Assembly (NCBI GenBank): GCA_945869825.1
Contig: CAMBQF010000001.1
Span: 18,372 to 82,371 of the forward strand
Source of the DNA: Chitinophaga pinensis
Lineage (GTDB): Bacteria; Bacteroidota; Bacteroidia; CAMBQF01
Direction of reading: 5' to 3'
Length of the DNA: 64,000 nucleotides
The notes beneath the pieces were generated by a model. The model did no database searches and was not told the origin of the DNA. It worked only from the letters and a program-made list of their open reading frames with translations. Positions 15,398 to 64,000 of this stretch are shown here, one piece after another. Numbering within the stretch: position 1 is the first letter of the stretch; every line of letters starts with the position of its first letter. A program made the position numbers and the translations under genes.

Positions 15398-15530
15398 GAA
15401 AAATAATTATGGTGCAAAGGTACTCTATAACTCTATAGCTATCAAAAAAAACAGGTAGCCTCTACATTCAATTTTTTCACTTTTTAGTTTTTCACTTTTA
15501 GTTTTCGCATACCTTTGCGTCAACTTTAAT

Positions 15531-15610
15531 ACAGGGGTGTCCGCCGTTTGGCGAACTGAGAGAGTCCCTTTGAACCTGATCAGGTTAGTACCTGCGATAG
15601 GGAGTATTAG
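15531..15610 (+). promoter_or_regulatory. TPP (thiamine pyrophosphate) riboswitch, THI element
   Basis: ACAGGGGTGTCC...CTGAGAGAGTCCCTTTGAACCTGATCAGGTTAGTACCTGCGATAGGGAG matches THI-box consensus (GGGGUGC...CUGAGA...ACCUGAUCUGGAUAAUGCCAGCGUAGGGA); lies directly 5' of TonB-dependent receptor gene. Confidence 0.85.
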
Positions 15611-15696
15611 GAAGCGCTTACGCACATTCTGTGCGTGTAGTCCTTAGTCCGTATACTACGGATATTCCTGTATTAAGGCAACAAATACAGGCTATC

Positions 15697-17877
15697 ATGA
15701 AAAATCAATTCAAAATTCAGAATGCAAAATGCATAATTGTGCTTGCAATGGCTATTTCAAACTTTGCTATTGCGCAAACGCCGATGAGTAAAACAATCAG
15801 CGACTCGGTAATAGTAGCGGCTACGCGTACCGATGGTAAACAGGGTGTGGCCTATACCCAGGTGAGTAAAGAGGATTTGAAGAAGCAAAACCTTGGGCAG
15901 GATATTCCGGTATTGCTAAACCTAACCCCATCGGTGGTGGTAAGCTCTGATGCAGGTAATGGCGTTGGCTACACAGGCATACGCATACGCGGCAGCGATG
16001 CTACCCGTATAAATGTTACCGTAAATGGTATACCTATGAACGATGCCGAAAGCCATGGTTTGTTTTGGGTTAACATGCCCGATCTTGCATCATCAGTAAA
16101 CTCTATACAAATACAACGCGGGGCGGGCACCTCTACCAATGGGGCGGGGGCTTTTGGTGCCAGTATAAACATACAAAGCAATGTGCTGAATGCAGAACCG
16201 TATGCAGAGGTTAACTCATCGGCCGGGTCGTTCAACACGTTTAAAAATACGGTAATGGTGGGCTCGGGACTTGTTGGTGGCAAATTTACTTTTGATGCAA
16301 GGCTTTCTAAAATAACATCAGACGGGTTTGTAGACCGTGCCGCATCAGACTTAAAATCATTCTTTGTATCAGGAGGATATTATGGCACAAAGACGATTAT
16401 AAGGGCTAATGTGTTTTCGGGCAAAGAACGTACGTACCAGTCGTGGTATGGCATACCCGAAGCGGCGTTGGATACCAACCGCACCTACAACTACTACACC
16501 TATGCCAACCAAACCGATAACTACCAGCAAGACCATTACCAGCTTATTGGCTCGCACAGTATGAACAACAACTGGAACCTCAACCTGGCGCTGCACTATA
16601 CCCGGGGCAAAGGCTATTATGAAGAGTACAGAGGGCAGGATGATTTTGCCAACTACGGCTTGCCCAATTTTCAACTTTCGCAAGATACCATTCCGCCTAT
16701 AACTGTAAGCACAACAGACCTTGTGCGCCAACGCTGGTTAGATAACCATTTTTACGGGCTTACCTACTCTGTAAACTACAAAAGCTACAACCGCTTAAGC
16801 TTTATTTTAGGCGGGGGAGCAAACCAATACCGTGGAGCCCATTATGGCAATATTATCTGGATGCAATATGCCGGCAGCATTCCTAAAGATTACCGTTATT
16901 ATGATAACGATGCAGTTAAAACTGACATTAATGTATATGGCAAAGCCAACTACCATTTTGGCGCGGGCATTAATGCTTTTATCGATTTACAATACCGCCA
17001 CGTAGGCTACTCATTTTTAGGGTTTGATAATAACCTGCAAAATGTGCAGCAAGATGTAAACCTTAACTTTTTTAATCCTAAGGCAGGCATTAACGTGGAG
17101 CTGCCAAGCGATCAGCAGTTATACCTATCAGCAAGCGTAGCGCACCGCGAACCCACGCGCGATGATTTTACCCAAAGCACACCTGCCAGCAGGCCTAAGG
17201 CAGAGCGGATGATAGATACCGAACTGGGTTATAAAAAGCATTGGAAAAACACTATGGTTGGAGCAAACGGTTATTTTATGTATTACCAAAACCAGCTGGT
17301 ATTAACAGGGAGAATTAATGATGTTGGCGCATATATACGCAGCAACATAGACCAAAGCTACCGCGCTGGTATAGAGCTGGAGGGAGCTGTAAACATTGGC
17401 AAAAAAGTGAAGCTTGCAGGTAACTTTACCTTTAGTCAGAACAAGGTGATAGACTTTGCCGAATATATTGACGATTACGACAATGGTGGGCAGGTGGTTA
17501 ACCGTTACAAAAGTACCGATATATCATTCTCGCCAAACATGGTGGGGGCGGCAACCCTTAGCTACGAGCCTGTAAAAAAGCTTGTATTTAGTTTGATTAA
17601 TAAATATGTTAGTCGCCAATACCTTGATAATACGAGCAACAAGGCACGGTCATTAAACCCTTATACCACGCAAGACTTACGCATAAATTACAACTTTAGC
17701 GCAGGTTCAGCAAAAGACATTTCGCTAATATTATCAGTAAACAACCTGCTGAATGCTAAATATGAGCCTAATGGCTATACGTTTAGCTATATATATGGAG
17801 GGCAACAAACCACAGAAAACTACTACTACCCGCAAGCGGGCATAAACGTAATGGGTGGCATAGGCGTAAGGTTTTAG
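15697..17877 (+). CDS. TonB-dependent outer-membrane receptor (riboswitch-controlled; probable thiamine/precursor uptake)
   Basis: Preferred start MKNQFKIQNAKCIIVLAMAISNFAIAQ (signal peptide); plug-like N-terminal region, beta-barrel, C-terminal GIGVRF. Confidence 0.8.
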   Translation: MKNQFKIQNAKCIIVLAMAISNFAIAQTPMSKTISDSVIVAATRTDGKQGVAYTQVSKEDLKKQNLGQDIPVLLNLTPSVVVSSDAGNGVGYTGIRIRGSDATRINVTVNGIPMNDAESHGLFWVNMPDLASSVNSIQIQRGAGTSTNGAGAFGASINIQSNVLNAEPYAEVNSSAGSFNTFKNTVMVGSGLVGGKFTFDARLSKITSDGFVDRAASDLKSFFVSGGYYGTKTIIRANVFSGKERTYQSWYGIPEAALDTNRTYNYYTYANQTDNYQQDHYQLIGSHSMNNNWNLNLALHYTRGKGYYEEYRGQDDFANYGLPNFQLSQDTIPPITVSTTDLVRQRWLDNHFYGLTYSVNYKSYNRLSFILGGGANQYRGAHYGNIIWMQYAGSIPKDYRYYDNDAVKTDINVYGKANYHFGAGINAFIDLQYRHVGYSFLGFDNNLQNVQQDVNLNFFNPKAGINVELPSDQQLYLSASVAHREPTRDDFTQSTPASRPKAERMIDTELGYKKHWKNTMVGANGYFMYYQNQLVLTGRINDVGAYIRSNIDQSYRAGIELEGAVNIGKKVKLAGNFTFSQNKVIDFAEYIDDYDNGGQVVNRYKSTDISFSPNMVGAATLSYEPVKKLVFSLINKYVSRQYLDNTSNKARSLNPYTTQDLRINYNFSAGSAKDISLILSVNNLLNAKYEPNGYTFSYIYGGQQTTENYYYPQAGINVMGGIGVRF

Positions 17878-30788: not shown

Positions 30789-31508
30789 ATGGAACATTTA
30801 AAAATTGCAAGCGATAACTATGTCGCATTTACGTTCTTTATCGGAACAATGGCTATGATGGCAGCCTCAGTATTCTTCTTTTTTGAGTTAAACAACACTT
30901 CTCAAAAGTGGCGAACATCGGTGTTGGTATCAGGCCTTATTACATTTATTGCAGCGGTGCATTACTATTACATGAGGGGCTATAACTTGGAAACAGGCGA
31001 GTCTCCTACATTTTTCCGCTATGTTGACTGGATTTTAACTGTTCCGTTAATGTGTGTAGAGTTTTATTTAATTACCAAAAAGGCAGGTGCTAAAATTCAG
31101 TTGCTTTGGAAATTAATATTTGCCTCGTTAGTGATGCTGGTGACAGGTTACTTTGGAGAAACTATTGACAGAGGCAATAGTGTACTTTGGGGTGTAATTT
31201 CTGGTGCTGCTTATTTTTACATTGCTTACCTGATATGGTTTGGTGAAGTTGCCAAATTGGCTCAAACTGCAGGAACACAGGTAGCTAAAGCTACACGCAT
31301 ACTTGCGTGGTTTGTACTAGTTGGCTGGGCAATTTATCCTTTAGGTTATATTTTAGGAACTCCAGGTGGCTTGTTTGGTATGCAATTAGTTAGCGACCCT
31401 GCAGCTGCATCTCATGCAATGGATATTGTATATAACATTGCCGACGCTATCAATAAAATTGGTTTTGGACTGGTAATTTATGCCTTGAGCAGAAGCTCTG
31501 AAGATTAA
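30789..31508 (+). CDS. microbial (type I) rhodopsin, proteorhodopsin/xanthorhodopsin-like proton pump (DTE motif)
   Basis: 7TM; helix C RYVDWILTVPLMCVE (Asp-Thr...Glu at BR85/89/96 equivalents); helix G retinal Lys in DAINKIGFGL. Confidence 0.85.
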   Translation: MEHLKIASDNYVAFTFFIGTMAMMAASVFFFFELNNTSQKWRTSVLVSGLITFIAAVHYYYMRGYNLETGESPTFFRYVDWILTVPLMCVEFYLITKKAGAKIQLLWKLIFASLVMLVTGYFGETIDRGNSVLWGVISGAAYFYIAYLIWFGEVAKLAQTAGTQVAKATRILAWFVLVGWAIYPLGYILGTPGGLFGMQLVSDPAAASHAMDIVYNIADAINKIGFGLVIYALSRSSED

Positions 31509-31592: not shown

Positions 31593-33602
31593 ATGAAAAT
31601 ATCAGCAAAAAATCCAGCCTTGCCATTTGATTTTATTTTTATAGGATTAGGTGCTGCAAATTGCTTGTTGCTTTTAAGGCTGCATGATAATGGCTTGCTT
31701 ACAGGTAAAACCATTGCTATTGTTGAACCGGATAGTAAATCAGCTAATGATAGGACTTTTTGTTTTTGGGCTACAGAAGATGATGTAACAAACTTACATG
31801 TAAAACCTTTGGTTAGCAACAGTTGGGACTTTGTAGAAATTGGTGGTATTGCCAAGCAACAAATTAATCCACTGCGCTATTTTCATGTAAAAGGTATCGA
31901 TATTTATAACCAAACAAAAAGTATTCTTAGTGTTAATAATGTTACATTTTTTAACACTCTTTTTAAAGAAAACCCGGAAGTAAAATCAACGTATTATGAA
32001 GTTAGACTGGCTAACGAAACACTTTATGGTTATAAAGTATTTGATAGTCGCCCGCCAATTTTTTTGCCCCCGAAAAAAAACCAAAGCCATTTATACCAAT
32101 CTTTTTATGGCTTAAAAATAAAACTCGCTACAAAAACATTTGATACTTCAGTAATGGTAATGATGGATTTTAACGTCCCTCAAAACAATTTCACACAGTT
32201 TGTTTATGTGTTGCCTTTTTCTGAAGATACGGCATTAATAGAGTTAACACGCTTTGGTACTGAAAAATTGACACAACAGGAAGCTACGCCAATTCTTAAT
32301 GAATACATAGATAGACTGGGAGTTTCTTTTGATATTTTAGAGGAAGAAAGAGGGGTAATACCTATGTCATCATCCGCTTTAAAAAGTGAAGATTTTGGCA
32401 CAAATTGGATAAACATGGGGGCTAGGGCAAATATGATTAAATGCTCTACAGGATATGCTTTTCATGCAATGGCAGAAGATGCCATAACGCAAATGGAAGC
32501 CATTAAAAATAATGTGTTTCCAAAAAGAAAAATGAAAGGGCAAAGGTTTGCTTTTTACGACCGGTTGCTATTAAAAATATTAGATGAAAGTCCTGAGTAC
32601 GGCAAAGTAATTTTTGAAACACTATTTAAAAAAGTACCTATTGTAAAAGTGTTACGTTTTTTAGGAGAGAAAACAAGCCTATCAGAAGAAATTATAATTT
32701 TTTCAAAATTGCCCAAGCGTATATTTATTACAAGCGCTGCAAAAGATATTTTGCAACAGTTTTATACTTTACCTGTGTTAGCGTTGCCTTTTCTGTTCAC
32801 TATTATTACCCTCTTTCTAACGCTTGTCAATCTTCAATATATTTCTTGGGGCATTTTAGGCTTGGGGTTTTTATCGGTTGGCCTGTCTCATGGCGCATTA
32901 GACCACCTAACAGCAAAACCAATCATCAATAAAAAACAACTACTAGGTTTTATTATACGGTATTTGTTTAAGGCCATTGTTTTAGGCCTGGTTTGGTTAT
33001 TTTACCCTGACTTGGCGCTACTTCTATTTATAGCTTACTCTGCCTGGCATTTTGGCCAAGCCGATTTTAAAGAATGGCAATTAAAACAAGGGTGGCAATC
33101 TTTATGCTGGGGCACTATTGCTTTAATGATTATTTTATTCTCTCATTTTGAAGAATTAAATTTAATTCTTTTACAAATACCCAATTTAGAATTTGTAAAC
33201 ACGTTAAAGAATCTTTCTGATAATATAATATGGGCTTTGAATATCCTTTTTATTGTAGGAGGAATTTTATTAGCTGTAATAAATAAATCAAAGCACATAC
33301 TTTTTACTTTAACATATTTATTGCTCTGTAGTATGTTGCCTTTACTTCTTTCATTTGGTATCTATTTTGTTGGCCAACACAGTTTACATGGTTGGCGTCA
33401 TCTTTCTTTAGGTTTGAATGAATCTTCATCACGATTATGGCTAAAGTCTCTCCCTTTTAGTATTGGGGGCGCATTGGTTATTTTATATTTTTTGCTTCTC
33501 TCAAGCTCAAATTATGTAGGTATTTTTTTTATCATTTTATCTTGTTTAAGCATACCCCATGTCTTTAGTATGCATCATTTTTATTCTAAGTTAAAACTAT
33601 AA
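31593..33602 (+). CDS. fusion protein: lycopene beta-cyclase (CrtY-type, FAD) N-terminal domain + Brp/Blh beta-carotene 15,15'-dioxygenase C-terminal membrane domain
   Basis: N-term FIGLGAANCLLLLRL dinucleotide fold and ~380 aa CrtY-like region; C-term polytopic region with Blh His motifs (GLSHGALDHL, WHFGQADF, GQHSLHGWRH, LSIPHVFSMHH). Confidence 0.7.
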   Translation: MKISAKNPALPFDFIFIGLGAANCLLLLRLHDNGLLTGKTIAIVEPDSKSANDRTFCFWATEDDVTNLHVKPLVSNSWDFVEIGGIAKQQINPLRYFHVKGIDIYNQTKSILSVNNVTFFNTLFKENPEVKSTYYEVRLANETLYGYKVFDSRPPIFLPPKKNQSHLYQSFYGLKIKLATKTFDTSVMVMMDFNVPQNNFTQFVYVLPFSEDTALIELTRFGTEKLTQQEATPILNEYIDRLGVSFDILEEERGVIPMSSSALKSEDFGTNWINMGARANMIKCSTGYAFHAMAEDAITQMEAIKNNVFPKRKMKGQRFAFYDRLLLKILDESPEYGKVIFETLFKKVPIVKVLRFLGEKTSLSEEIIIFSKLPKRIFITSAAKDILQQFYTLPVLALPFLFTIITLFLTLVNLQYISWGILGLGFLSVGLSHGALDHLTAKPIINKKQLLGFIIRYLFKAIVLGLVWLFYPDLALLLFIAYSAWHFGQADFKEWQLKQGWQSLCWGTIALMIILFSHFEELNLILLQIPNLEFVNTLKNLSDNIIWALNILFIVGGILLAVINKSKHILFTLTYLLLCSMLPLLLSFGIYFVGQHSLHGWRHLSLGLNESSSRLWLKSLPFSIGGALVILYFLLLSSSNYVGIFFIILSCLSIPHVFSMHHFYSKLKL

Positions 33603-59651: not shown

Positions 59652-60098
59652 TTAAAATGGCAAATCGTCGGTAGGGCCTTCTATAGGCGGCGCAGGCTCA
59701 GATGTATTGGTACCAGCGTTGTAAGCAGGTTCTGCTGCTGCTCCACCTTGTTGGTCTTCGCGTCTTTGCAGGCCACCCAGCAGGGTAATATTATCGGCAA
59801 TAATTTCGGTAGTGTAGCGTTTGTTGCCGTCGCGGTCTTCCCAAGAGCGGGTGCGTAGTTTACCCTCAATATATAGTTGCTTGCCTTTGCGTATGTATTT
59901 TTCGGCCAGTTCGGCCAGGCCGCGCCATAAAACAATGTTGTGCCATTCTGTTTGTTCCATACGTTGGCCTTCTCGGTCGCGGTAGGTTTCGGTAGTTGCT
60001 AAAGGAAAAGTAGCCTTGCTTGTTCCATTCTCCATGTGGCGTATTTCAGGGTCTTTCCCAACGTTGCCAATTAAAATTACTTTATTAACTCCTGACAT
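59652..60098 (-). CDS. ssb: single-stranded DNA-binding protein
   Basis: OB-fold N-terminus (KVILIGNVGKDPE), Gly/Gln-rich linker, acidic C-terminal tail DDLPF. Confidence 0.9.
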   Translation of the reverse strand: MSGVNKVILIGNVGKDPEIRHMENGTSKATFPLATTETYRDREGQRMEQTEWHNIVLWRGLAELAEKYIRKGKQLYIEGKLRTRSWEDRDGNKRYTTEIIADNITLLGGLQRREDQQGGAAAEPAYNAGTNTSEPAPPIEGPTDDLPF

Positions 60099-60577
60099 TT
60101 TCTCGTAATTTTTTAATTCAATAAATTAAGCCTTTTGGTATGATATGAAACAAACGTACGGGAAAAAAATTAGCCTTGCAATATAGGGCAGGTAAATTTA
60201 TAAGTGTATATACAAGGGTTTGTAAATAAGCAATTTATAGTTTAAAATGATATTTGGTATTATTGTCCTATGCGGACAGCACTTCCTTTTTGCTTGATCA
60301 AAAAGGAAGCAAAAAATCAACGGCAGCATTTCTCAACGACCCGCTAAGAGGTCGTTCGCTAAACCGCGCAAACTCGTCCTGCGGACTCAAACAGCGCGCG
60401 CTTTGTCCCGCAAGGGCGGAACCGCTCACTTTCTCTGCGGGTCCCCGTTTCGAAACGCTAAGCCGGTCTCTGTCCGTAACCGGACAAAGGTTCTAAATCC
60501 GGGCATGGACAGACCAGCGCACAATGGACATCCCATAAGTTAATAGCCCGTGAAACAACTCTCCCTTTTAAAGGGAG

Positions 60578-60608
60578 TACCTCGCGTAGCGAGGGGAGGG
60601 ATTTTTTT
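60578..60608. terminator. hairpin (CCTCGC-GTA-GCGAGG) + T7; terminator-like on plus strand, immediately after kynU stop on minus strand
   Basis: perfect 6-bp stem with flanking second hairpin CTCCCTTTTAAAGGGAG; T-run on plus strand only. Confidence 0.35.
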
Positions 60609-61893
60609 AAATTACCTCAGAAACGATTTTGGCGAAACGGTAACAATCGCTAAACGAGTTGTACAATGGTACCGGCGCTATGCGGATAACGTTGGGGTTG
60701 CGCCAGTCGGCTATAACACCGTTTGCGGTTAGGGCATCAAACACCTCGCGCCCTTTGTCATTAAATAGCAACGACAGCTGGCAGCCACGCTCCGCAGGGT
60801 TGCTTGGGGTGATGATTTCAAACGCATTAGTAGCGTTTACCTGTTGTAAACAGAACTCCAAATAGGCGGTAAGCTGCTTGCTTTTGGCAGTTAGTGCATC
60901 CATGCCCGCCTCGGCAAATAGTGCTACAGATGCCCTGTGCGCTGCCATAGACAAGATAGGGGCGTTGCTTAGCTGCCAGCCTTCGGCGCTTTCTATCGGG
61001 TTAAAACCCGGCTCCATTTTAAAGCGGTTTTCTTTGTTATGGCCCCACCAACCGGCCATACGCGGCAGGTTAGATTTGTGGTGTTTTTCGTGTACAAAAG
61101 CTCCCGCCACACTGCCCGGCCCCGAGTTTAAGTACTTATAGCTGCACCAGCAGGCAAAGTCTACATTCCAGTTGTGGAGTTCTAAGGCTACGTTGCCGGC
61201 GGCATGTGCCAAATCGAAACCACAGAAAGCACCGGTTTTGTGGGTAGCTTCGGTAATGGTTTTCATATCGTACAATTGCCCATTGTAGTAGTTTACCCCG
61301 CCAATAATAACCACTGCCAACTCATTTGCGTGTTGGTTTATTGTGTCTATTATTTGTTGGGTAGCGGTATAGTAACCATCAGAATAATCAATCTCTATAA
61401 CCGCTTCTTTAGGGTCGAAACCATGCAACCGCGCTTGCGATTCAAAGGCATAACTATCACTAGGGAAAGGTTTTTTCTCGCAGATGATTTTGTAGCGGTC
61501 TTTAGTAGGGCGGTAAAAGCTGGTTAGCAGCAGGTGCAGGTTTACGGTAAGCTGGTTCATTACCACCACCTCGCTTGGCAAGGCACCCACAATGGCGCTT
61601 ACATCGGTAGCAAAGCGTTCGTGGTAGGGCATCCAGTTGCCGCTGGTAATGGTGGTGCCGTTGGCCAGGGTTTTCTCCCGGTTGGTAAAATGGCCTTCTA
61701 CTCCCAGCTCGGCCCAAACATCCAGTTCGGCCTGTATATACTCCCCTAAATTTTTAGGTTGAAGGCCTAACGAGTTGCCGCATAAATACACTGCCGGTTG
61801 CCCGTTGTGTTTAGGTAGTAAAAACTTATCGCGGAAGCTTTTTAGCTTATCGTTAGTGTCTTGTTGTTGGGCAAATTGCTCTGTAAACTCCAT
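60607..61893 (-). CDS. kynU: kynureninase
   Basis: 428 aa with kynureninase-like N-terminus and PLP-dependent aminotransferase class V region. Confidence 0.8.
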   Translation of the reverse strand: MEFTEQFAQQQDTNDKLKSFRDKFLLPKHNGQPAVYLCGNSLGLQPKNLGEYIQAELDVWAELGVEGHFTNREKTLANGTTITSGNWMPYHERFATDVSAIVGALPSEVVVMNQLTVNLHLLLTSFYRPTKDRYKIICEKKPFPSDSYAFESQARLHGFDPKEAVIEIDYSDGYYTATQQIIDTINQHANELAVVIIGGVNYYNGQLYDMKTITEATHKTGAFCGFDLAHAAGNVALELHNWNVDFACWCSYKYLNSGPGSVAGAFVHEKHHKSNLPRMAGWWGHNKENRFKMEPGFNPIESAEGWQLSNAPILSMAAHRASVALFAEAGMDALTAKSKQLTAYLEFCLQQVNATNAFEIITPSNPAERGCQLSLLFNDKGREVFDALTANGVIADWRNPNVIRIAPVPLYNSFSDCYRFAKIVSEVI

Positions 61894-61974
61894 TTTTCTG
61901 AGGTGCTAGCTTCTAGGTGTTAGGTGCTAGGAGCGACGATAAAATGCTAAAACCTAGAACCTAAAACCTAGAAC

Positions 61975-64000
61975 CTATTTTGGGTATTCTATCCTTGCGT
62001 GGTACATATTGCCCAGCATCTTTTTAAATATTTTGCGGGCGGTATCAATATCTTTTAGGGTAATGTCGCTCTCGTTAAACTGCTCGTCTTCAATCATCCG
62101 GTGTATAATGGAATCAACCAGGTTGTTTAACGATTCAGGGTCTTTAGACTTTAAGCTGCGCGAAGCCGCCTCTACCGAATCGGCCATCATAAGTACGGCG
62201 GTTTCTTTACTAAACGGCTTTGGGCCGGGGTAAGAGAACAGTTCTAAATCGACAGCACGATCAGGAAATTTTTTTATGTACGAGTTGTAGAAATACTGTA
62301 CCCGCGTGGTGCCGTGGTGGGTTTCTATAAAGTCGATAATTTGCTGGGGCAGCCTGTTGCGACTGGCAATTTCTACCCCCCGGGCTACATGGTTTACAAT
62401 AATATGGGCGCTTTGGTCAAACTCAATACTATCGTGTGGGTTTACGCCTTCTACCTGGTTCTCTATAAAGTACAGCGGCATCTCCATTTTACCAATATCG
62501 TGGTACAGTGCCCCAGTGCGCACCAGCATAGAGTTGCCACCAATTTTATCTACCGCAGCCTCGGCCAGGTTGGCAACCTGCAACGAGTGTTGGAAGGTAC
62601 CCGGGGCTTTTAGCGCCAGTTCTTTTAATAGCGGGCTATTGGTGTCGGCCAGTTCCAGCAAACGCACATCAGATGTGAAACCAAAAAGTTTCTCGAATAT
62701 GAATATAGACGGGTAGGCAAACAGCACTAACAAGCTGCTGCCAGCAAACCAAACGTAGGGTTTTAAGTAGATGTTGTCAAAGCTACCTTCGTGCAAAATT
62801 TCTATGCCTGTGTAGCCAAGGGCGTACATACCAAATATCATAGCGGCGGCAATAATAAGCTGGCCGCGCTTTTTAAGGCCTACAATGCTAAATAGCGCAA
62901 TAATGCCAGCCGCTAGTTGCAGGAATACAAACTCGAAGCTATTGGGTATGATAAAACCTACCACCAGCACCGTTATAAGGTGTGTATAGAGGGCCACGCG
63001 GGTATCAAAAAACGCCCTTATAATAATGGTAACAATACAGAATGGCACCAGGTAAATGTTCAGTTCATCAAACTGAAGCACTAACCAGCAGGTAAATACC
63101 ATAAGTACAATAATGAAGAAAAGAAACGAAAAGCGGGCATTGTCGCGCACCATCTCTTTACGGAAAAGCCATAAAAACAGCACCAGCAATATAAGGGCCA
63201 TAGATATGACCACGGCTTGCCCAATGCTTACTGCCCAGCTATTGTAATTATCGCCATATTGTTTTTCAGTTTCCAATCGCAGCGACTCCAGCTTCTGGAA
63301 CACCTCATTGTTTACAATATTGCCACGGCGCACAATTACTTCGTCTTTGCTAACAAGCCCCTGTGTTATAGAAATATCATCTTCTAAATCAGCTTTATAG
63401 TCCTGGCTTAGGTCGCTTTCGTAAAAAATATCGGGTTCCAGCTGCTTAGCAATAATGCCAACTACCTCTTGCGGCATATCGGGGTGGCGCCTTAACACCC
63501 AGGCATTTAAAGAGTCTTTTACGGCCTCCATTTTTATAAACGAAGCCAGGGGCCTTTCATCTGCATATTTACCCTCAACAATGGTAATTTCAAAATTGCC
63601 GCGCTTGCCTCTTAAAATGTCATTTTCAGCATAAATGCCGTAGCGGTAAATTTCGTCTATCAGCCTAAGGCCAATGCTCAGGTTTTCGGCTGTGTTAAGC
63701 ACCAGTTTTTCTTTAGAGCGGCGCATAACCATGCCGCTGTCTGCCTGTTCGGCACCCAGTTCTTTTTTAAAGCGGGTTTTAGCTTTATCGTGCACGCCAC
63801 GGCTTATGGTAAAAAAGGGCTTAAAACCCTTACGCACCCCTTCAAACTCATTATCAAGTTCAAGGGTTGATTTGAAGATTGGAAAGCTGAATGGAGCCTT
63901 TAAATCTTCGTATTGCCAGGGTTTGTTTTTTTGATACTCGTACTTAAACTTGCGGCTGTTCGGGAACATCCATACCACCAGCATTACCGTTAGTATAAAC
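61975..64000 (-). CDS. 7TM-receptor HDIG-domain phosphohydrolase (PgpH/YqfF-like), 5' end may extend past window
   Basis: Extracellular N-domain, 7TM block, C-terminal HD domain with LYHDIGKM motif. Confidence 0.7.
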   Translation of the reverse strand, partial: FILTVMLVVWMFPNSRKFKYEYQKNKPWQYEDLKAPFSFPIFKSTLELDNEFEGVRKGFKPFFTISRGVHDKAKTRFKKELGAEQADSGMVMRRSKEKLVLNTAENLSIGLRLIDEIYRYGIYAENDILRGKRGNFEITIVEGKYADERPLASFIKMEAVKDSLNAWVLRRHPDMPQEVVGIIAKQLEPDIFYESDLSQDYKADLEDDISITQGLVSKDEVIVRRGNIVNNEVFQKLESLRLETEKQYGDNYNSWAVSIGQAVVISMALILLVLFLWLFRKEMVRDNARFSFLFFIIVLMVFTCWLVLQFDELNIYLVPFCIVTIIIRAFFDTRVALYTHLITVLVVGFIIPNSFEFVFLQLAAGIIALFSIVGLKKRGQLIIAAAMIFGMYALGYTGIEILHEGSFDNIYLKPYVWFAGSSLLVLFAYPSIFIFEKLFGFTSDVRLLELADTNSPLLKELALKAPGTFQHSLQVANLAEAAVDKIGGNSMLVRTGALYHDIGKMEMPLYFIENQVEGVNPHDSIEFDQSAHIIVNHVARGVEIASRNRLPQQIIDFIETHHGTTRVQYFYNSYIKKFPDRAVDLELFSYPGPKPFSKETAVLMMADSVEAASRSLKSKDPESLNNLVDSIIHRMIEDEQFNESDITLKDIDTARKIFKKMLGNMYHARIEYPK

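Follow-up and report, generated by a model that had tools for sequence, protein, structure and literature searches.

A previously undescribed family of structured, insertion-polymorphic elements with a copy in a kynU-ssb spacer of Bacteroidota

Element S and its fold

The window analysed here, a stretch of 64,000 nucleotides (nt) of Bacteroidota DNA, contains a spacer (60099-60606) that separates the minus-strand genes ssb and kynU and harbours one copy of an element that we refer to as S. An earlier reading of this DNA, made from the sequence alone (hereafter the sequence-only reading), had described the spacer as free of open reading frames (ORFs), GC-rich and highly structured, and this is confirmed by a core GC content of 0.56-0.59 (AT-rich flanks, 0.27-0.33), by a sole sizeable ORF that proved non-coding and by a fold far better than that of shuffled sequences. 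From this, a structured non-coding RNA had been proposed. The complex fold holds, being strongly selected on one strand, whereas the single-locus RNA gene does not, since S is a dispersed family: we found ten distinct copies (window, L001, L082 copy 2, L105, L106, L107, L108/L109, L110, L112-L115 and L116/L117) spanning at least eight genomic contexts in related uncultured Bacteroidota across metagenomes, and an additional, interrupted copy on the kynU side of L082. Conservation of the fold across these scattered copies means that S is neither an RNA gene tied to this locus nor a leader of ssb. The family is previously undescribed, and its fold has no counterpart in Rfam.

In the direction of the minus strand, S begins with hairpin 1 and continues through a branched rod, a U-tract and hairpins 2 and 3 to a short A/T-rich tail (Table 1). 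Hairpin 1, already recognised by the sequence-only reading as a GTCCG-GTTA-CGGAC stem, is real and conserved, being kept with other sequences in L106 and L116 (TCAACC/GGTTGA) and in L108 (TGTCCGC/GCGGACA) and degenerate in L107; immediately 5' of it, reading of the 5' flanks revealed a conserved TTWAAACC. The stem CTTCCTTTTTG/CAAAAAGGAAG (60282-60292/60299-60309) likewise stands as real and conserved. Two other stems had to be redrawn, as AACGACC/GGTCGTT is a local alternative of the window only, broken in other copies (GAC to GCC), with covariation favouring the long-range helix GACCCGC/GCGGGTC, and the supposed CCTGCGG...CCGCAAGG stem is in fact two hairpins, the rod tip and the optional arm. 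The closing pair of hairpin 2 varies (G-C, C-G or U-A), the pair at its base is G·U in all eight copies aligned with MAFFT, and its loop is AUCAAG in nine of ten copies (AUCUAG in L116), while one to three hairpins of the hairpin 3 type occur in other copies, with the stem variants CUCC/GGAG, CUAC/GUAG and UGCC/GGCA. Invariant unpaired stretches comprise a GGG bulge, a UAG bulge, the internal loop of the rod tip (CUGUU-G-A/AGUUU) and GAUUUUUUG, which is present in ten out of ten copies and also lies 3' of the unrelated rod of a sister family, S2. The rod-closing helix CGGC/GCCG, followed by UUGAUUUUUU, is kept in all S copies and has an equivalent 3' of S2 rods; the hairpin that it closes is unusually long and branched.

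Comparative analysis demonstrated that this fold is under strong selection on one strand, the minus strand of the window. In the MAFFT alignment of seven copies, 66 pairs had 97.7% canonical cells and 18 of them were compensatory; none of 500 shuffles equalled this fold, and controls with slid partners reached 39-48% pairing. Furthermore, an alignment of all ten copies guided by a covariance model (CM) gave 43 core pairs with 98.8% canonical cells, 20 of them compensatory, again without an equal among 500 shuffles (slid controls of both alignments together, 32-48%). The ten-copy alignment was fitted to the structure, and the MAFFT result agrees with it. Already the window and L001 alone yielded six compensatory pairs (RNAalifold), and covariation was also found in hairpin 1, hairpin 3 and the optional arm. 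For the minus strand of S, the minimum free energy structure of the single sequence, the centroid and the comparative structure are the same.

The sequence-only reading had considered a plus-strand transcript plausible, which our data contradict. S alone folds at -103 kcal/mol (z -5.71) on the minus strand versus -85.3 kcal/mol (z -4.29) on the plus strand, and the larger segment 60255-60610 at -144.8 (z -5.7) versus -121.9 kcal/mol (z -3.2). G·U cells exceed A·C cells by 21 to 2, and two G·U pairs are invariant in the eight MAFFT-aligned copies (the core one becomes A-U in L112 in the ten-copy alignment), which identifies the minus strand as the sense strand.

Three further structural motifs were considered and rejected. 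A pseudoknot between UUGAU, 5' of the U-tract, and the loop AUCAA would join two stretches that are invariant in most copies, but both change without compensation in L116. A single-strand origin of the ssoA type was dismissed because the CS-6-like TAGCGT at the rod base lies outside a loop and reads TGGCGT in three out of ten copies, and the GAG-AAA-GUGA loop has unpaired nucleotides on both strands and is hence not a standard K-turn.

Searches against known families returned no relative of S. At gathering thresholds, the only match of Rfam 15 in the whole window was a TPP riboswitch; at permissive settings, 59900-60800 together with L106, L107 and L109 produced nothing beyond noise on S (E ≥0.5, with scores well short of the gathering cut-off). 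The models covered RNase P, tmRNA, 6S, SRP, the IscB-associated HEARO, riboswitches, ribozymes and Bacteroidetes motifs, and presumably the IS605-orfB motifs, so that the Rfam search proposed in the sequence-only reading bears out its view that tmRNA, RNase P, SRP and 6S do not fit. No match to S was obtained by blastn (word size 11) in 5,426 complete Escherichia coli genomes or by blastn against plasmids and phages, and an exact 18-mer scan gave no match in viral contigs and 19 in metagenome contigs, all of them spurious matches to an unrelated 27-mer. S is not repeated elsewhere within the window, where a REP-like abundance of CCGCANAGG or GTCCAYGCCC was also rejected, as both occur at chance level.

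Table 1 Features of the kynU-ssb region of the window
Feature	Positions	Strand	Remarks
ssb	59652-60098	minus	PF00436 matched by orthologues
Candidate ssb promoter-like site	60151-60185	minus	TTG-N20-TACGTTTG, Bacteroidetes -33/-7 type; downstream of S
Right-hand flanking direct repeat	60241-60248	minus	ATTTTAAA; candidate target-site duplication, pairs with ATTTAGAA and ATTTAAAA
Element S	60249-60490	minus	~240 nt; limits are start and end of homology among ten distinct copies
Sole sizeable ORF of the spacer	60254-60496	plus	Non-coding
Hairpin 3	60264-60278	minus	UGUCC-GCAUA-GGACA; terminal, GNRNA-like pentaloop; pairing kept across copies
Hairpin 2	60279-60310	minus	12-bp stem, loop AUCAAG; three compensatory stem pairs
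U-tract	60310-60320	minus	UUGAUUUUUUG; single-stranded, directly 3' of rod-closing helix
Core rod	60321-60468	minus	~150 nt, helices P2-P12; CM R1 score 150.7 bits
Rod tip hairpin	60376-60386	minus	Part of core rod
Optional side arm of rod	60405-60423	minus	In subtype A, not in subtype B; covaries
Hairpin 1	60469-60488	minus	UUUGUCCG-GUUA-CGGACAGA
Direct-repeat octamer	60491-60498	minus	ATTTAGAA; between M-like 5' motif and S; junction GGATTTAGAACC also in L107, at another locus
M-like 5' motif	60499-60522	minus	GUGCGCUGGUCUGUCCAUGCCCGG; consensus GTGCGGGGGTAGTCCACGCCC
T module	60557-60601	minus	~45 nt, two hairpins directly after kynU stop; flagged terminator-like on minus
T hairpin	60561-60577	minus	CUCCC-UUUAAAA-GGGAG
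T hairpin	60580-60594	minus	CCUCGC-UAC-GCGAGG
Common insertion junction	60605-60612	minus	ATTTAAAA; overlaps kynU stop codon (TAA, 60607-60609)
kynU	60607-61893	minus	Pfam KYNU_C/Aminotran_5 match; homologues named kynureninase

Copies, subtypes and insertion polymorphism

Copies of S were collected by several routes. A KynU scan of the genome collection identified only one close relative, L001 (93% amino acid identity), in which the order kynU, spacer, ssb is kept, and a protein search added graded KynU homologues (88-92% and 73-75%), the contigs of which were compared. The spurious ORF across S, used as a protein query, retrieved P0121-P0124, and a profile search P0127 and P0128, whose contigs gave further copies; in the protein search with the sense frame, the L110 copy itself was the sole match. 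A CM search of 80 kynU loci of Chitinophagaceae or Flavobacteriales found no S copies. The other contexts of S comprise thiolase/7TMR-HD, YCII, FGGY kinase, DUF349, gcvP/outer membrane protein (OMP) and ATPase/endonuclease loci, and a consistent gene association was rejected, as the neighbours of the copies are unrelated. Two copies can lie close together, no more than 4.5 kb apart in L082.

Contrary to the sequence-only reading, S is also not a fixed feature of the kynU-ssb spacer. In relatives with 74-92% identical KynU the spacer lacks S and measures 158 nt (L111, KynU 92%), ~160 nt (L081, 88%) or 167 nt (L085, 74%), S is present in forward orientation in the window, L001 and L082, and it is inverted in L110 (KynU 92%; 135 bits), of which a sister contig has a kynU-ssb spacer of ~1 kb. 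Conservation among relatives, whose absence the sequence-only reading had named as a refutation, therefore fails for the locus, which is variably empty, forward or inverted, and holds for the element, which is conserved and covaries among its copies elsewhere.

The junctions point to repeated use of one site. In an alignment, L001, L110, the window and L082 share a common kynU end up to ...ATTTAA and diverge exactly thereafter into four different continuations, which start with the 5' or the 3' end of S or with an additional module. The insert of the window and that of L001 are flanked by ATTTAAAA and ATTTTAAA, and the empty L111 site holds a single ATTAAAAC; L110 carries GTAATTAAA at both sides of its insert, and L107 and L116 have imperfect flanking repeats of 8-9 nt. 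At the thiolase/7TMR-HD site the flanks are too diverged for exact insertion boundaries. Taken together, the spacer of the window is a mosaic of small inserted modules (T, M and S), placed at the TTTAA that holds the kynU stop codon. As a separate observation, an insertion of ~230 nt in L110 (1775-2031) displaces the kynU 3' end and contains a cysteine-containing ORF of 65 aa (1812-2009) without an assigned family, and the original kynU end ...TTTCTGAAGTAATTTAA resumes beyond it.

Two subtypes of S can be distinguished: subtype A, with the extra arm and a GCGCG stem (window, L105, L106, L107, L110, L112 and L116), and subtype B, without the arm and with a UCUGU/ACAGA stem (L001, L082 copy 2 and L108). 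The window and L001 thus carry different subtypes at the same site. The two sequences agree completely (100%) within 60220-60319 but at only 63-73% of positions in the rod, and their flanking genes reach 77-99% identity per 100-nt stretch (mainly 80-95%), a pattern that suggests exchange with other copies together with constraint in place and points to an exchange of S subtypes between the orthologous copies.

Associated modules and neighbouring genes

Besides S, the spacer contains two smaller units. CTCCC...GGGAG and CCTCGC...GCGAGG with the following T7 had been taken by the sequence-only reading for the 3' end of an RNA, but they belong to a separate unit beside the kynU stop, the T module (TCCCTCCCC-TCGC-TAC-GCGA-GG-TACTCCC-TTTAAAA-GGGAGAGTT). 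Further copies lie at L082:4296-4345 and L116:1800-1855, the latter inverted, after TTTAA and ~120 nt from an S copy, and the module is missing from the orthologous L001 spacer. In the window, T is probably the kynU terminator; a two-hairpin repeat that directly follows TTTAA where genes end, oriented either way relative to S, it has the appearance of a portable terminator.

The M consensus lies 5' of S in L107, L082 copy 2, L105 and L116 and also opens S2-type elements (L082:4456-4567), and an M-like variant with reordered parts stands 5' of S2 in L112. Short forms of S without M (L001, L106, L108 and L110) all share their start position. The sister family S2 was located at L112:445-700 (minus), in tandem with S, and at L082:4456-4567, preceded by a GTGCGGGGG-type motif. 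Its rod of ~110 nt is unrelated to that of S (CCGCAAAAUU.../...AAUUUUGCGG), and it has the same UGAUUUUUUG and hairpin 2 as S, along with small 3' hairpins of the type seen in other S copies. The interruption of the S copy next to kynU in L082 likewise consists of S2-like sequence. Judged by these sequence comparisons, S and S2 belong to one superfamily, whose members keep the 3' end constant, often carry an M-type motif at the 5' end and differ in a structured core that can be exchanged. A further hairpin, GGGCTAAAGCC(C), found 3' of some S copies, is a separate REP-like repeat of Chitinophagaceae-type genomes, with five sites in the Ferruginibacter locus L040 and others in L013, L071 and L106-L109, and none in the window.

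On the ssb side, the TACGTTTG box of the promoter-like site, which follows the -33/-7 promoter consensus of Bacteroidetes, is kept in the window, L001, L081, L085 and L111, whether S is present or not. On the other side of kynU, an inverted repeat with arms of 25 nt (61901-61977) lies between the 7TMR-HD gene and kynU; its arms are 7-nt tandem repeats, (AGGTGCT)n facing (CTAAAAC/CTAGAAC)n, and CTAGAAC/CTAGGT-type runs also occur in intergenic DNA of L082, L083 and L108. Elsewhere in the window, the TPP riboswitch (15523-15620, plus; 66 bits) lies directly 5' of a gene for a TonB-dependent receptor (15631-17877), and a microbial rhodopsin gene (30789-31508, plus) is followed by a fused lycopene cyclase/beta-carotene 15,15'-dioxygenase gene (31593-33602), together a retinal-based light-harvesting cassette.

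Interpretation and comparison with known repeats

Our favoured reading, held with moderate confidence, is that S is a copy of a lineage-restricted, non-autonomous, insertion-polymorphic element family, that the product under selection is a structured single strand and most probably RNA, and that the copy in the window is co-transcribed with kynU as a terminator or 3'-end structure. S would be transcribed together with kynU, because the two are co-oriented and no promoter of its own was recognised. The rod and the U-tract might then act as an intrinsic terminator or as a structure protecting the 3' end, ahead of an independent ssb promoter, and the arrangement in L001, where S directly follows the kynU stop without another terminator, supports the terminator reading. 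A protein, either a host RNA-binding protein or a mobilising enzyme, may in turn recognise the unpaired nucleotides that are conserved and the 3' module that is constant.

Several observations weigh against this reading. Hairpins 2 and 3 still covary although they lie 3' of the U-tract, so that the U-tract cannot be an efficient terminator if these hairpins act in the same RNA. In five contexts (L105, L108, L110, L112 and L116) S is antisense to both neighbouring genes, and read-through cannot account for its expression there; reading of all S 5' flanks for TTTG-N19-21-TAnnTTTG, sigma-70, extracytoplasmic function (ECF) and sigma-54-like boxes found no promoter. The strand-specific selection could target single-stranded DNA instead of RNA. 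As for mobility, the window has one S copy only, which indicates that the copy number per genome may be low, and the flanking repeats are short (8-9 nt), AT-rich and partly imperfect, so that a sequence-specific target cannot be told from the element termini. Comparison of the ends across copies by eye revealed no terminal inverted repeats; the sole resemblance, between the stems of hairpins 1 and 3, is confined to the window and L001. Moreover, no transposase, reverse transcriptase, TnpB or integrase was found in a scan that covered 40 of the 53 window ORFs with 180 aa or more.

S and S2 could instead be ordinary paralogous small-RNA genes, trans-acting or part of a ribonucleoprotein, with a promoter of their own perhaps in or near M, the rod and U-tract as terminator, and gain and loss by recombination. 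We consider this unlikely. It would fit the conservation in situ (complete identity over 60220-60319, above that of the flanking genes), the invariant nucleotides in loops and bulges, the autonomous transcription implied by the antisense copies, and the architecture of S2, with common 5' and 3' modules round another core, as small-RNA families share promoters and terminators. Yet no conserved Bacteroidetes-type -33/-7 promoter (TTTG/TAnnTTTG) could be read 5' of hairpin 1, M is entirely missing from the short forms, and simple gain and loss predicts neither a TTTAA junction used both ways with flanking direct repeats nor, in L082, an S copy split by an S2-type insertion. Alternatively, the structure may be selected as a single-stranded DNA or RNA intermediate of movement without gain for the host, either IS200/IS605-like (as in palindrome-associated transposable elements, PATEs) with a guide-RNA scaffold, or SINE-like with a 3' module recognised by a reverse transcriptase (RT). 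The strand-specific pairing, the subterminal hairpins at both ends in the absence of terminal inverted repeats, the constant 3' module common to S and S2, the AT-rich TTTAA-type target with 8-9-nt flanking repeats and short A-rich 3' tails, and the long and short 5' forms of S would all be explained, but we regard this as improbable, given that no TnpA, TnpB, IscB or RT gene adjoins any S copy or was seen in the scanned window ORFs, that the Rfam models including HEARO gave no match, and that direct repeats are present, whereas IS200/IS605 elements insert without target duplication. In addition, the short forms start at one position, unlike random 5' truncation, and an insert that is purely selfish would not be expected to be better conserved than the genes beside it.

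Explanations tied to the locus or to coding capacity fare much worse. A cis-regulatory ssb leader (a long 5' untranslated region, UTR, or riboswitch) or a dedicated regulator in the kynU 3' UTR would agree with the co-orientation of S and both genes in the window and with the highly conserved region upstream of ssb between the window and L001, but is highly improbable in view of the empty spacers of L111, L081 and L085, the inverted S of L110, the unrelated genes next to other copies, and the ssb promoter-like box that lies downstream of S and is kept without it. To a small protein gene or its remnant, encoded by the plus-strand ORF of the spacer with 'hypothetical protein' homologues, we attach practically no weight. 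ORFs are indeed called across S copies (P0121-P0125, P0127 and P0128 in public protein collections, 69-174 aa), but they are mis-called ORFs that lie on both strands and in differing frames, with no precomputed Pfam domain on record, and the copies differ by indels of 16, 5 and 3 nt and by compensatory substitutions that are paired across helices and not placed at third codon positions.

Going beyond the favoured reading, S and S2 might represent a new class of modular mobile elements of uncultured freshwater Bacteroidota, an idea that we put forward tentatively and consider unlikely as a whole. Such elements would be assembled from a constant 3' module (U-tract, hairpin 2 with its fixed loop and terminal GNRNA-type hairpins), an optional 5' motif and interchangeable structured rods of ~150 nt, would lack terminal inverted repeats and duplicate 8-9 nt on insertion at TTTAA-type sites, and would be spread by an enzyme encoded elsewhere via a strand-specific RNA or single-stranded DNA intermediate; if so, S and S2 would correspond, in bacteria, to non-autonomous elements that are SINE-like or bear a guide RNA. 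For genome annotation, a long GC-rich spacer emerges as a mosaic of mobile structured modules that are repeatedly mis-called as hypothetical proteins, and for RNA biology S adds a new, well-supported fold with 20 covarying core pairs. For the study of mobile elements, one TTTAA junction is precisely reused in both orientations, yet inverted repeats and a nearby enzyme gene are lacking, and identifying the recogniser of the shared 3' module would reveal, in a phylum-level lineage that has received little study, either a novel way of mobilisation or a novel RNA-protein system.

Compared with known repeats, S shares with ERIC (IRU) a small, non-coding, intergenic and dispersed nature, a long imperfect rod (which makes up the whole element in ERIC), optional internal insertions that create long and short forms, either orientation to neighbouring genes, variable presence at orthologous sites and, in the favoured reading, an action on transcripts when co-transcribed. 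Unlike ERIC, S belongs to a different phylum, has no sequence similarity to it (E. coli blastn) and an apparently low copy number, and is multi-domain, strand-asymmetric and equipped with invariant unpaired nucleotides. BOX of pneumococci and BIME of E. coli likewise combine a small set of modules (in the present case T, M, S, S2 and the common 3' module) in varied order and number, and are hairpin-rich, intergenic and without a known mobilising mechanism; the modules described here have no sequence relationship to theirs, the core of S far exceeds boxA/B/C or REP units in length and complexity, and 8-9-nt flanking direct repeats and a TTTAA junction are present, unlike in BOX or REP. Miniature inverted-repeat transposable elements (MITEs, e.g., Correia/NEMIS of Neisseria) are similarly short and non-autonomous, with an AT-rich target, short flanking duplications (candidate ones in S), strain-level insertion polymorphism and shared ends round a variable interior, but no terminal inverted repeats were recognised in S, and its ~150 internal nt are under strong structural selection on a single strand, a constraint that MITEs of the DDE type do not require. 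PATEs derived from IS200/IS605 and the omega RNA/reRNA of TnpB and IscB resemble S in their subterminal hairpins without terminal inverted repeats, their strand specificity and, if S is RNA as is most probable, a long structured non-coding RNA within a small mobile element; S differs in its direct repeats and in having no HEARO or other Rfam match and no TnpA, TnpB or IscB nearby. Overall, S has no sequence in common with the intergenic repeats of the ERIC, BOX/BIME and MITE types and most resembles them in its behaviour, with a fold that is more elaborate and asymmetric.

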